Source of the DNA: a virus
Taxonomy: Duplodnaviria; Heunggongvirae; Uroviricota; Caudoviricetes
IMG/VR virus record: IMGVR_UViG_2681813421_000009
Length of the DNA: 13,965 nucleotides
Strand: one strand, 5' to 3'
Translations under genes and position numbers: made by a program
The notes under the pieces: generated by a model
Told to the model about the DNA's origin: nothing
What the model saw: the letters and a program-made list of their open reading frames with translations, nothing else
The model's database searches: none
Shown: positions 8,773 through 13,792 of the stretch, one piece after another
How the letters are laid out: every line of letters begins with the position of its first letter
Position numbering within the stretch: position 1 is the first letter of the stretch

Positions 8773-8876
8773 ACCTGTACCACCTATACCACTTTGCTAA
8801 TTCAGCATTAAAAACAATGCGTTATAGTGGTACAGGTCAATATCTTACCTATACCAGACCTGTACCACCTATACCA
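8773..8876. repeat. Iteron-like repeat cluster downstream of the primase
   Basis: Perfect 19-bp direct repeat ACCTGTACCACCTATACCA at 8773-8791 and 8858-8876; inverted copy GTGGTACAGGTC at 8827-8838 facing GACCTGTACCAC at 8857-8868; CCTATACCA occurs three times. Confidence 0.6.
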
Positions 8877-9882: not shown

Positions 9883-9986
9883 TGGTACAGGTCTGTACAG
9901 GTGGGGAGAGGTCATTTTTACCCACCTGTACCACCTGCAGGCCGCGCCACACAAGGGTTTGTGACATGGTGGTACAGGTGGTACAG
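9883..9986. repeat. Second iteron-like cluster including an 11-bp perfect inverted repeat
   Basis: Same core motif (GGTACAGG / CCTGTACC) in at least five copies: TGGTACAGGTC 9883-9893, GTACAGGTGGG 9895-9905, CCCACCTGTACCACCTG 9921-9937, GGTGGTACAGGTGGTACAG 9968-9986. GTACAGGTGGG (9895-9905) and CCCACCTGTAC (9921-9931) form a perfect inverted repeat with a 15-nt spacer. Confidence 0.6.
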
Positions 9987-10480: not shown

Positions 10481-10654
10481 ATGGCTATTTCAGTAAAGCC
10501 AGTATTGATAAGTGAGAAGCAAATGGAAGCGATAAAGAAAATTCAGGAGGAGCAGCGTAAAAAATCAGAGGTAGGAGTTGCGCCAACGATCCACGAAATT
10601 GCTCGGGGATTAATGGATAAGGCGCTGGCTTACACTTTAACTGGACGTGGGTAA
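10481..10654 (+). CDS. small DNA-binding-like protein (57 aa, possible ribbon-helix-helix fold)
   Basis: ATG at 10481 with RBS AAGGGGGG 5 nt upstream. The six-frame ORF from 10352 would overlap the terminator hairpin and has no RBS. The RHH call is a guess from size and charge pattern only. Confidence 0.5.
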   Translation: MAISVKPVLISEKQMEAIKKIQEEQRKKSEVGVAPTIHEIARGLMDKALAYTLTGRG

Positions 10655-10658
10655 ATTT

Positions 10659-12002
10659 ATGGCTACGTGGCAACAGGGTATTAATTCTGGTGGTTTTCTG
10701 GCTGGCATCGGTGCGCAAAATGAGAATGCGCCAAAGGCAAGCGACATTAACGCAACGCTTGGTCTGATCCGCGAAAACAATGAACTGGCTCGCTCAGGTG
10801 CAAATAACGTTGCTCTGACAGGTCTTCGTGGTCTGGCTGGAGTTGCTGACATTTATAAGCAGCAGCAACAGCAGGAACGTAAAGCGGCATTCCAGAAAGG
10901 TTATGCAGATGCTTATGCGTCCGGTGACAGGGAGCAGATGCGTAATCTTATTACAGCATTCCCAGAAGAGTTTGAGGAAGTCCGTAAAGGGATGAGTTAT
11001 GTCGATGATGCTCAAAGGGATGATTATGGCAATCTGGCGCTCAAAGCACAGGTAGCCTCATCGCTTGGTCAGGGCGCATTTGGCAGGTTCATGATGGATA
11101 ATGAGCAGGAGATGCGTCGTTTAGGTATCCCTCCAGAAACTATTGCTGAAATGCAGGTTAATGACCCGCAGGGCTTCCAGCATTTCGCAGGTAATCTGGC
11201 GCTGTTTTCTCTCGGTCATGAGAAGTATTTCGATATCAAAGATCAAATGGAAGGTCGTCGACTTGAGCAAGGGCGACTGGATGAAAGTATGCGTCAGGCT
11301 GACATGGAGAACGCGAGAGGATGGGCAAATATCCAGAACGCTCAACTAGACAGGGCTCAGCGAGCACAAATTCACTCAGATGAGATGGGATTGAAGCTAA
11401 TGGAGCTGGGGCAAAAAGGTAAGCCGTCAGCAGACTTAATTAAGGGATTAAATTCTGACATTACCAATTTTGGCAAAAATTATAACTCTGTCAGAGCGGC
11501 GGCAAACTCTCTGCAAGCCCTTAGCAAGGTAAATACTGGCGCTGCCCAACTTGGGATTATCTTCAACTACATGAAATCTCTTGACCCGCAGTCAGTCGTT
11601 CGTGAAGGCGAACAGGTTCAGGTAATGCGGTCTGATGGCATATGGGGACAAATCAAAGGATACATAGACCAGCTTAATGCTGGAAACGGCCTGTCGCAGG
11701 AGGCAAAGGATAACATTGTTAACGCCGCAAAAATCAACGCCAATGCTATGGGGCAGCAGTTTAACCAGCAGGTTGACGAGTATCTCGATACATATGGAGA
11801 AACTATTCCTCAGGGGCTAAGAAAAAGCCTTGAAAGAAGGAAAGCGAAGCTATTTGACGATGTTTCCGGGCAGCCTACATCACAGGCTGGCACTGGACAG
11901 GCAAAAGCGGCAACCGGAGGAATATCAGAAGGCGCAACGGCAACCAACCCTAAAACTGGTCAGAAAATCATTTACAGGAACGGAAAATGGCAGCAAATGT
12001 AA
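10659..12002 (+). CDS. hypothetical Gln-rich, coiled-coil-like protein (about 447 aa)
   Basis: ATG at 10659, 4 nt after the upstream stop; a GTG at 10647 is the alternative start. Contains a QQQQQ run and many Q/E/R-rich predicted helical segments. No catalytic motif recognised. Confidence 0.6.
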   Translation: MATWQQGINSGGFLAGIGAQNENAPKASDINATLGLIRENNELARSGANNVALTGLRGLAGVADIYKQQQQQERKAAFQKGYADAYASGDREQMRNLITAFPEEFEEVRKGMSYVDDAQRDDYGNLALKAQVASSLGQGAFGRFMMDNEQEMRRLGIPPETIAEMQVNDPQGFQHFAGNLALFSLGHEKYFDIKDQMEGRRLEQGRLDESMRQADMENARGWANIQNAQLDRAQRAQIHSDEMGLKLMELGQKGKPSADLIKGLNSDITNFGKNYNSVRAAANSLQALSKVNTGAAQLGIIFNYMKSLDPQSVVREGEQVQVMRSDGIWGQIKGYIDQLNAGNGLSQEAKDNIVNAAKINANAMGQQFNQQVDEYLDTYGETIPQGLRKSLERRKAKLFDDVSGQPTSQAGTGQAKAATGGISEGATATNPKTGQKIIYRNGKWQQM

Positions 12003-13792
12003 TCTTACCGGAAGGTTTTGTGCTCGATGAACAACCTGATAACTCACAGTTTCCTGATAGTTCACAGCTTCCTGATGGTTTTGTGCTTGATGCCCAACCA
12101 GAACAGCAGCAATCACCTTTGGTTTCACCAGAGGAAAATTCCAGACAGGAAAATGTTGTTAATAATGCTAACGGTTTCGACCGTTTTATGTATGGCGTTC
12201 TCAGTGGATTGATGGATGTTGGTAAAGGTGTTGGCCTGTTTCAGGATATGACACCAGAAGAGCAAGCCGCAATTCAGTCTCTACAGCAGAAGTTAGCGGC
12301 AAAACCATCAACCGCACAAGATGTTGGTGAGTTCGTTGGACAAGCAGCGCCATTTGTTAGTGGTGGTGGGATTATTTCTCAGGTTCCCAAAGGGGCGGCA
12401 AGACTGGCTGCCGCCGCAGGGCTTGGTGCTGGAGAAGGGGCTATTGTAGCCAATGGAACAAATAGCGATGTTGCTTCCGGCGCTGCTATTGGCGCTGTGG
12501 CTGGCCCTGTAGCCGAACTTGCTGGCCCTGCAATTAATAAAATAGCTGGGAAATTAACCAAGAAGAATGTTTCTTCGATTCCAGATATTGAGGGGATTAC
12601 TCCTGCCGAAGAGAAAATTCGTAAGTTATCTGCACAAGGCAACCCAAATCTTGCCTCTTCGCTTGAAGGGCTAGATCTAAAACCTCAGAAAGAAATTGTT
12701 GAGGCTGCAAATAGGCTTCATGTTGATTCAGTTCTTCCTTCTCATTTATCAGGAAATGAGCAATACCAAGCTGTAGAGCAAGCCCTAAAGTCACGGACAG
12801 GATCAGCGTTAAAAGCTCAAGAAGATAAAGCAATAAGCGAATTAGCCTCTAGTGCTGGCAAGATAATCGATGATGTTGCTGGTGCGCCAGATGCGTTAGC
12901 TATGAGCGAAAAATATATTTATCAGATAAATAGTAGAATGGAAGCACTAAAAAACCGTAGTGATCAGTTATATAAACGTGTTGATTCCGCTCTATCACCA
13001 AGAACAAAAGTCGAAGCAAATAACACAAGCACTATGCTGGAAAAAATCGCTGATGATTTAGGAGGGTGGGATAATCTTGACCCAATAGAAAAGCGAGTTT
13101 TTACAGCAATAAACCCCGGCCCAGATAGCATCCTAACGTATGCAAATTTAAACAGGCAAAGGCGTTTAGTTGGTGATGCCCTAAATAAAAAGCAGGGGCC
13201 ATACAAAGATGCTGATAAAGAAGCGCTATCAAGACTATATGGAGCTTTAGCTGAAGACCAAAAATCTGTCTTATCCAATACTGGATACTTGCGAGATTTC
13301 GAAGTCGCACAACGCCTTGTAGCTATGAGAAAAAACTTAGAAAGGCAAATGGTAAATCTTCGCGGGAAAACACTTAATGGGGATATAGCGTATAAAGTAA
13401 CGAATTCTCTTCAATCTATGGCAAAAGGTGATGCGAGAGGGTTTCGTGAGATTATGCAAAATACTCCATCAAGAACATTGCGAAGGGAGCTAGTAGGAAC
13501 AGCATTAAGAGATATGCTTTCCTCTGGGAAGCGTGGGGCCGACTTTAATCCATCTGGCTTCGCAGATTGGTGGCAAAACTTGCAACACAGTGGACAGCTA
13601 AAGACTTTGGCTGAACATTTGCCAAAAGAAACAATGAGCGGACTATATGATGTATACAAAGTTGCCAGAGCAATAAAAAATGCTAAAGCGCATGAAATAT
13701 CTACTGGTAAGCTGAATGAGTTTGTAAACAGATTTAATCGGGTAACAGCTCCATACGAACTAGCAGCAAAGGTAGTGACTCCAACTTACTGA
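11987..13792 (+). CDS. hypothetical large protein, 3' end truncated by IS1 insertion
   Basis: ATG at 11987 with RBS AGGAA, overlapping the upstream gene by 16 nt. N-terminal tandem motif [10 protein letters not shown] / [10 protein letters not shown], then a Gly/Ala-rich segment, then an AT-rich-encoded K/E/N-rich C-terminal region. Native sequence ends at 13770; the last seven codons (VVTPTY-stop) are read from the IS1 inverted repeat. Confidence 0.6.

Follow-up and report, generated by a model that had tools for sequence, protein, structure and literature searches.

A duplicated LP(E/D)GFVLD peptide at the N-terminus of phage DNA-ejection proteins, its predicted partner tail on the upstream protein, and a probable role in docking

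Introduction

Why would a phage DNA-ejection protein begin with the same short peptide twice? The question is raised by a stretch of 13,965 nucleotides of IMG/VR virus record IMGVR_UViG_2681813421_000009 (Caudoviricetes), analysed here at its full length and called the window. Near its 3' end lie two overlapping genes that resemble those of the ejection proteins gp20 and gp16 of phage P22, and the gp16-type protein carries two copies of an LP(E/D)GFVLD peptide in its first 40 residues. Our results show that this repeat occurs together with a hairpin-like tail at the C-terminus of the gp20-type protein encoded just upstream. From the comparison of many such pairs, we consider it probable that the repeat is a bivalent module that docks directly onto two gp20 tails.

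In P22, gp20 forms a dodecameric periplasmic tube, of which the C-terminal 'plinth' is thought to template the assembly of gp16 across the inner membrane (10.64898/2026.09.03.749273). In this in situ structure, six gp16 molecules fitted the density best, gp20 residues 436-471 and the gp16 interface were unresolved, and gp16 was inseparable from gp20 in proheads (10.64898/2026.09.03.749273). For this junction of the P22-type DNA-injection channel, the comparative pattern described below names likely interface peptides on both proteins.

A duplicated peptide in the window

The argument concerns the following features of the window:

10659-12002, plus strand: gene of the gp20-type ejection protein (the periplasmic tube protein of the P22 ejectosome), assigned by PF16928, PHROG 917 and RefSeq
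11925-11999, plus strand: C-terminal tail of the gp20-type protein, 25 residues with one hairpin-like motif (EG)xTATNPxTGxK..(F/Y)..GxW, predicted to be the partner of the repeat; the stop codon is at 12000-12002
11987-12002, plus strand: overlap of 16 nt between the gp20-type and gp16-type genes, from reading the sequence
11987-13771, plus strand: gene of the gp16-type ejection ('DNA transfer') protein, native part of 595 codons, assigned by PHROG 6704 and PHROG 770
12005-12037, plus strand: repeat copy 1, residues 7-17 of the gp16-type open reading frame (ORF), from sequence reading and repeat detection
12068-12100, plus strand: repeat copy 2, residues 28-38 of the same ORF, found in the same way
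12035-12070, plus strand: nested 18-nt tandem duplication in the spacer (Tandem Repeats Finder, period 18, score 63), CCTGATAACTCACAGTTT and CCTGATAGTTCACAGCTT, encoding PDNSQF and PDSSQL

A preliminary description of this DNA, made from its letters alone, had reported a tandem 21-codon repeat with two matching 16-mers at the N-terminus of a 'large cargo protein'. Exact matching located these 16-mers, GGTTTTGTGCTCGATG at 12014-12029 and GGTTTTGTGCTTGATG at 12077-12092, with 63 nt from start to start between the copies. Repeat detection on the window gave 81% DNA identity between 12008-12039 and 12071-12102. At the protein level, 9 of 11 residues are identical, with the consensus LP(E/D)GFVLD. 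None of 5000 shuffles of the first 100 residues reached nine identities, as the best pair of 11-mers had at most seven, and the best pair in the remainder of the gp16-type protein has at most six.

While the two copies do lie 63 nt apart, they do not form a 21-codon unit placed head to tail. The repeat consists of two motif copies of 8-11 residues and a spacer, and its period is specific to the lineage of the window, since the motif spacing is 15 residues in nearly all relatives versus 21 in this lineage only. In DNA alignments, three prophage relatives (L043, L049 and L054) show an 18-nt gap against the window and have one spacer unit where the window has two. Hence, the 21-codon period can be traced to an 18-nt insertion, which added six codons. 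The term 'cargo protein' was likewise imprecise, because its PHROG match makes the protein a P22 gp16-type DNA-ejection protein.

The copies differ at 7 of 12 codons, and four of these differences are synonymous, which indicates an old duplication kept by selection on the peptide rather than recent slippage. The repeat also does not behave as a hypervariable slippage repeat: the copies spaced 63 nt apart are 81% identical, the copy number is mostly two, and between relatives only the 18-nt spacer unit varies. The structure prediction that had been proposed for the N-terminal region was run with AlphaFold2 (AF2) on an intact homologue, with a 28-sequence alignment as input. Residues 1-47 were modelled as coil with a predicted local distance difference test score (pLDDT) of about 35, so that the region is predicted to be unstructured on its own.

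Spread of the N-terminal module

Is the repeat a property of this protein, or of a wider group? In the 120 homologues listed, shared downstream segments are preceded by N-termini (the first 30-60 residues) of several discrete types: LPEGFVLD x2, MKVTANGKTFTFPDGTS..IDEYF, MAKAWKDVIASPQYQ.., MAGPWEKYQ..GPWxxYQ (x2), MDVLLPNGRTI.., NFFDQFD x2, SWEExxKQF x2, and forms that start with an SLT domain. At least two different segments were seen to follow the GFVLD x2 module, and one downstream segment was combined with five different N-terminal modules. The module thus assorts independently of the body. The window protein has a body nearest to the Sf101/APC_JM3.2 type (66% over residues 204-594) and an N-terminal part of ~200 residues that matches Kapi1/E212/EC.P3-type proteins.

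The module was turned into a profile of 33 positions, with which an exhaustive search of 1.84 billion cluster representatives yielded 252 matches at E<=1e-3. In ~109 of the best 150 of these 252, the module sits at the extreme N-terminus (residues ~7-35). Two copies were counted in 95 of these ~109 clusters (87%), three in 10 and seven in 1, with a start-to-start spacing of 12-23 residues (mode 15-16), a natural range that includes the 21 residues of the window. The bodies are mutually unalignable (mean column identity 9%), whereas L, P, G, (F) and D of the motif are invariant or nearly so. The carriers that could be annotated were DNA ejection or transfer proteins, transglycosylases or endolysins, a cell-wall hydrolase, and proteins containing LPD3 or ART domains, which are kinds of protein that phages carry in the capsid and eject. 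One carrier (L292, 4001-13654) has the GFVLD x2 head on a polyvalent protein of 3217 residues with InPase, LPD5 and LPD1 domains. We conclude that the LP(E/D)GFVLD repeat is real and ancient, and that it is very widely used as an N-terminal tag by phage DNA-ejection proteins.

Giant repetitive proteins in which a GF motif lies inside repeats of 100-170 residues (P0121, P0131) were also retrieved; we regard them as unrelated to the N-terminal module.

These data bear on a neutral origin, in which the repeat would be a low-complexity or slippage product in a disordered linker, or a by-product of gene overlap and translational coupling. The lineage-specific 18-nt duplication in the spacer is indeed of the slippage type, and the gp16 start codon does overlap the Trp codon of the gp20 tail. 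Yet, the motif lies beyond the 16-nt overlap and its copies differ mostly synonymously. Moreover, it has stayed nearly invariant, and mostly in two copies, over >100 clusters with unalignable flanks and bodies, while tails in loci with an overlap of just 1-4 nt still have their Trp. A neutral origin is therefore highly improbable.

A predicted partner tail on the upstream protein

What, then, might the N-terminal module recognise? In a gp16-family set of 80 IMG/VR loci, the head (the N-terminal module of gp16) was typed against the tail (the last 10-25 residues of the upstream gp20) in 75 loci, which comprise 48 unique junctions and 8 head types. The correspondence between head and tail was fully block-diagonal, with 0 exceptions. 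The pairs are as follows, each tail being followed directly by the stop codon except where dots are shown at the end:

GFVLD x2 head: gp20 tail ..EG(A/M)TA(T/K)NPKTGQK(I/L)IYRNG(Q/K)WQ(P/Q)M
AWKDV head: gp20 tail ..SSLWG(D/E)
VTANGK head: gp20 tail ..SGIQFTV(E/K)
GPWExY x2 head: gp20 tail ..GGDPSxxNxW..
SLT-first, NFFDQFD x2 and SWEExxKQF x2 heads: gp20 tail ..YGYLP..
LPNG head: gp20 tail ..WxS(M/L)K

All 35 loci of the GFVLD type in this set (14 unique junctions) have the hairpin tail upstream, and in homologues with a different gp20 tail the GFVLD module is replaced by other N-terminal modules. The gp20 segment before the tail varies within a class, and two loci (L026 and L027) that share this segment nevertheless differ in their tail/head pair. 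Phages Kapi1, E212 and SEN22 are likewise of the GFVLD type. The known phages follow the same scheme. The P22 junction is ..SGIKFTVE and stop, then MKVTANGKTFNFPDGTS (read IKFTVE and stop, then MKVTANGK), and that of Sf6 and HK620 is ..FSSLWGD and stop, then MAKAWKDV. The label 'HK620-like' for relatives of the GFVLD type was dropped, as HK620 is of the AWKDV/LWGD type.

The same tail was found beyond the gp16 family. It ends the upstream protein for each of three distant proteins with a GFVLD head that were chosen from the exhaustive search (3/3; ..REGQTATNPKTGERMIVRGGKWQKM, ..REGATATNSETGQRIVVRDGKWQPL and ..KTATNTETGTRIISNDGGKTWQPIQ, each before the stop). A further 80 loci from soil, groundwater, marine and gut metagenomes were found with LPEGFVLD x2; the upstream ORF was readable in 74 of them and ended in the hairpin tail in 71. 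Pooling these sets gives 81 unique tail/head pairs. The repeat is thus neither absent nor unconserved in homologues, which the preliminary description had named as the outcome that would count against a recognition module.

Tail and head also covary in charge. Over the 81 pairs, their net charges are negatively correlated (Spearman -0.32, permutation p 0.003, phylogeny being ignored). Likewise, the less basic 'DGGKTW' tails face heads containing Lys or Arg in 12 of 15 pairs, compared to 16 of 66 for other tails (Fisher 9e-5, again ignoring phylogeny).

Tandem duplication is also seen in GPWExYQ x2, NFFDQFD x2 and SWEExxKQF x2 heads (P0007, P0056, P0101, P0065; L005, L034, L081, L036). Each of these duplicated heads is tied to its own gp20 tail type, so the rule of two copies in the head may extend past the GFVLD type.

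The same peptides in reversed polarity

Genes that lie side by side are inherited together, and the motifs are encoded adjacently, here even in overlapping genes. Part of the association could therefore come for free. A scan of IMG/VR for DNA encoding T-A-T-N-P-x-T-G bears on this objection. For 44 C-terminal TATNPxTG tails, a strict pattern found a double GF head downstream of 27, and inspection by eye added 5 with a variant or single-copy GF head. The scan also returned a second class, in which the hairpin motif is at the N-terminus of a large protein (530-2500 residues) and occurs there in two tandem copies, e.g., MALQTATNPTTGERVVLVGDQWQPITQSATNKQGVKAYLVGGNW. The protein upstream (~420-660 residues) then ends in a single P-x-G-F-x-x-D, as in ..AVLPEGFELDQ, ..PALPPGFTVDK and ..PPPPPGFELD, each before the stop.

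Among 33 unique junctions of this reverse class, 30 have a PxG(F/Y)xxD tail at <=6 residues from the stop and 28 have exactly two hairpin copies in the head, and in none does the tail hold two GF copies. In the sequences compared, the same two kinds of peptide thus face each other across the gene junction in either orientation, always with the single copy favoured in the tail and the double copy in the head. No single protein among those collected carries both motifs. PHROG annotation of the reverse-polarity proteins gave almost nothing, and the phage context is apparent from their neighbours: the loci are podophage tail and ejection cassettes with an SU10-type adaptor, a tail fibre with S74 chaperone and a pectate-lyase tailspike, after which genes of 235, 451 and 819 residues occupy the gp7, gp20 and gp16 positions.

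Another locus (L290, 4001-5842, 613 residues) is informative in a different way. Its protein starts with an SLT domain of 135 residues and has GFVLE/GFVLD x2 only at residues 138-160, while the upstream protein still ends in ..EGKIAVNPQTGEKLVRTSGKWVPAQ before the stop. Hence, the pair is kept with the motifs ~140 codons apart. Together, this locus and the polarity swap weaken the linkage objection without removing it.

Linkage is also central to another explanation, in which tail and head do not touch each other. Both could bind a shared third partner, such as a host factor of the inner membrane or periplasm (for example YajC), peptidoglycan, the portal or another virion protein, and would travel together by being encoded side by side. 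The motifs are always encoded close together, YajC has been raised as a possible gp16 partner (10.64898/2026.09.03.749273), and the polyvalent protein of L292 has the head without a canonical upstream tail. However, the motif kinds swap places while one tail copy and two head copies are kept, which is expected of complementary partners and not of two independent ligands of a third factor. The tail and head charges covary, and head type tracks tail type over eight classes with no exception. The hosts range from enterobacteria to those of marine and soil metagenomes, which makes a single host factor unlikely. We therefore regard a shared third partner as a rather unlikely explanation.

Probable docking of the repeat onto gp20 tails

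Our results show the features of a linear docking motif: a disordered segment, a motif conserved amid divergent flanks on unrelated proteins, and a partner that co-occurs and covaries with it. The role in docking or recognition that had been proposed for the repeat is supported by this comparative evidence, as the repeat has been kept wherever the upstream protein has the cognate tail. At the N-terminus of gp16, the component that extends the DNA-injection channel across the inner membrane, the two LP(E/D)GFVLD copies would act as a bivalent docking module that is intrinsically disordered. Each copy may bind the hairpin-like C-terminal tail of one gp20 subunit, probably as an added beta-strand. 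One gp16 would then bridge two neighbouring gp20 subunits, and thereby fasten a gp16 ring of lower order onto the 12-fold gp20 tube, in line with the 12:6 ratio modelled for P22. Two tails per head would offer a simple reason for the duplication. While the motif, its copy number and portability, the partner motif, the reversed polarity and the charge covariation were observed, we infer the direct contact of tail and head, the strand-hairpin geometry and the 2:1 logic.

Genetic experiments with P22 are in agreement with a specific junction. P22 with only the Sf6 gp16 or only the Sf6 gp20 was non-viable, although the Sf6 gp16 was still packaged, and both Sf6 proteins together worked (PMC10883804). 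Loss of the last 33 residues of gp20 was lethal (PMC10883804). As P22 and Sf6 have different tail/head types, the dead hybrids had mismatched junctions.

The same experiments bear on an alternative role of the repeat as a capsid-targeting signal, which would recruit the ejection protein into the procapsid via scaffold, portal or coat, comparable to the capsid targeting sequence of T4. Ejection proteins must enter procapsids, and the motif, a disordered N-terminal segment, is portable in that many different bodies have it, some of them effector-like. However, the Sf6 gp16, which has a different head type, was packaged in P22 together with P22 gp20, scaffold and portal, and these particles were non-functional (PMC10883804). 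Head type thus did not determine incorporation there. In addition, the gp20 tail was the only correlate of head type found, in a comparison that did not extend to portal and scaffold types. On balance, a packaging signal seems distinctly unlikely.

Several points weigh against docking of the repeat onto gp20 tails. Co-inheritance of adjacent motifs is partly free, as noted above, and the charge statistics carry no phylogenetic correction. The pairing has exceptions in the metagenome loci (L149, L152 and L169), in the reverse class (L203 and L205) and in L292, the upstream gene of which lacks a canonical tail. The VTANGK and AWKDV head types are not obviously duplicated. Sequence searches of the PDB with the head profile and with a double-hairpin head returned only chance matches (LRR, FOXM1 and a designed Kelch protein), and no solved structure with either motif. 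The gp16 hexamer is an AlphaFold-guided fit at about 10 A and not a determined stoichiometry (10.64898/2026.09.03.749273). Finally, the function of the window copy is doubtful, since it is truncated by IS1 in an island without capsid genes or gp7.

A broader reading is conceivable, and we offer it tentatively. The strand motif (L-P-x-G-F-x-L-D) and the hairpin motif (T-A-T-N-P-x-T-G-x-K...G-x-W) might form a universal, polarity-reversible connector of successive ejection proteins of short-tailed phages. Its 1:2 copy ratio could encode the step in symmetry between a 12-mer tube and a 6-mer complex in the membrane, and its use with different bodies could be plug-and-play. If so, phages and satellite-like islands could attach different bodies, such as transglycosylases or giant polyvalent effectors, to the injection channel.

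Comparison with known systems

The nearest relatives are the Lederbergvirus pairs P22 gp20/gp16, Sf6 gp12/gp13 and HK620 gp20/gp16, which resemble the window in gene order, protein families (PF16928; PHROG 770/6704) and mosaic organisation. Each of them also combines a short gp20 tail with a short N-terminal module of gp16, and a cognate pair is required experimentally (PMC10883804). They differ in that P22 and Sf6/HK620 have tail/head types of their own, whereas the window has the hairpin tail and the duplicated LP(E/D)GFVLD head. Moreover, the window pair lies in an island with an integrase and a primase, unlike that of a complete P22-like prophage.

The nearest structural analogy is found in T7, where residues 157-228 of gp16 form a 'molecular tape' that cements the C-terminal domains of gp15 in the periplasmic tunnel (PMC8954989). 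As we propose for the window, the inner-membrane ejection protein there uses an N-terminal segment of extended, non-globular form to attach to the C-terminal end of the tube protein. In contrast, T7 shows no sequence similarity to the window proteins, its complex is 6:6 after ejection, its tape comes after the transglycosylase domain, and neither a tandem short motif nor a tail hairpin has been described. Proteins of the L290 type, in which the SLT domain precedes GFVLD x2, resemble the T7 domain order.

Two other systems share the portability of the head. The capsid targeting sequence of T4 is a single N-terminal peptide of ~10 residues, which directs internal proteins into the prohead and is cut by the prohead protease. 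Like this sequence, the GFVLD head is a short portable N-terminal tag on proteins injected with the DNA. It differs in having two copies and no known cleavage, and in that its correlate is the tail of the neighbouring ejection protein. The polyvalent proteins of phages and conjugative elements, reportedly described by Iyer and colleagues in 2017, are relevant because some carriers of GFVLD x2 are such giant multi-effector proteins, recognised by LPD1/LPD3/LPD5, InPase and ART domains. These carriers suggest that injected effectors, too, can be coupled to the ejection apparatus through the head. Unlike them, the window protein has no effector domains. To our knowledge, the GFVLD head motif is not part of the published catalogue of polyvalent-protein domains.

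It was already known that gp20 and gp16 must be cognate; what would be new is a specific and generalisable connector within this known machine. In the searchable literature, we found no description of the LPxGFxLD or TATNPxTG..W motifs, their pairing, the reversed polarity or the 1:2 copy rule, although an earlier remark for P22-like phages is possible. Hundreds of phage proteins from many environments that otherwise defy annotation fall under this pattern. The pattern would offer a cheap sequence signature for genes of ejected proteins in metagenomic podophages and, for engineering, a candidate tag with which cargo could be loaded onto the ejection apparatus.

The gene pair in the window

By sequence and synteny, the window protein is a member of the gp16-type ejection family. 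It matches PHROG 6704 (1.6e-163, residues 1-581) and PHROG 770 'DNA transfer protein' (2.3e-46, residues 112-599), and its gene lies directly downstream of the gp20-type (Inj_translocase) gene. The gp20-type protein in turn matches Pfam PF16928 Inj_translocase (2.5e-73) and PHROG 917 'released from the phage upon host infection' (4e-132), and RefSeq names it 'phage DNA ejection protein'. The longest ORF of this gene starts from a GTG at 10647, the RefSeq start being at 10659. In Pfam, no family matched the gp16-type protein or its closest relatives, and a sequence search of the PDB with the whole protein found no related solved structure. In the intact homologue, AF2 confidently modelled residues ~230-570 as an all-alpha body, and Foldseek with this model against the PDB gave no match at E<=1e-3.

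The gp16-type reading frame is not intact in the window, where IS1 has taken the place of the last ~110 codons from about nt 13772 onwards. The frame continues for 6 codons beyond the native part, in sequence of the IS1 junction, to a stop at 13790-13792. The remaining 113 codons sit past IS1 (L001 18240-18581). RefSeq accordingly lists a pseudogene without C-terminus that adjoins an IS1 transposase. Intact relatives have 705 residues (P0001, 99% identical and in a cluster of 433 sequences; L002; L003), and many other genomes have an intact gene.

The gp16-type ATG arises within the Lys-Trp codons of the tail (AA-ATG-GCA versus AAA-TGG-CAG). Related loci and many unrelated ones (L090-L169) often have overlaps of 16, 19 or 22 nt. 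Their recurrence suggests a conserved translational coupling, and tail and head possibly pair co-translationally.

A Gly/Ala-rich hydrophobic stretch at 12330-12560 (residues ~115-190) is conserved across several module combinations and has very low AF2 confidence. With this stretch, a candidate for membrane insertion, the gp16-type protein may enter the membrane.

The island carrying the pair

The window is 100% identical to the E. coli chromosome NZ_LR883050, where it forms an island between yicC and dinD. This island of ~17 kb (L001 3702-20754) contains, in order, a P4-like tyrosine integrase, HTH, AntA, DUF4222, Ash, small ORFs, a primase with Zn-ribbon, Toprim and DUF5906 domains, hypothetical genes, the gp20-type and gp16-type genes, IS1 and PerC. 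Genes for capsid, tail and gp7 are absent from it, a gp7 homologue having been specifically sought, and the pair is accordingly not surrounded by a virion-assembly cluster (gp7, gp14, portal, coat, tail). At least 80% of the segment 10300-13965 is present in 84 of 5426 complete E. coli genomes. The island looks like a satellite-type element with only the cognate ejection-protein pair, which possibly rides in the particles of a P22-like helper. We found no paper on a satellite-type island that carries only such a pair.

Two side observations concern other repeats in the window. The 9-mer ACCT(A/G)TACC occurs in clusters, with six copies at 8773-8875 just 3' of the primase gene and three at 9884-9979, about 1 kb further on. 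With <=1 mismatch there are 11 matches against 1.4 expected, and 0 of 200 shuffles reached 11. These clusters look like iterons and, by analogy with the P4 ori/crr, could mark an origin or a cis-replication region. The intergenic region between the end of an ORF at 1916 and the start of the HTH gene at 2388 holds, at 2060-2100, a 20-nt tandem repeat, AGCCATCATGAGCCATTATA, with 2 copies, 85% matches and a 10-nt sub-period.

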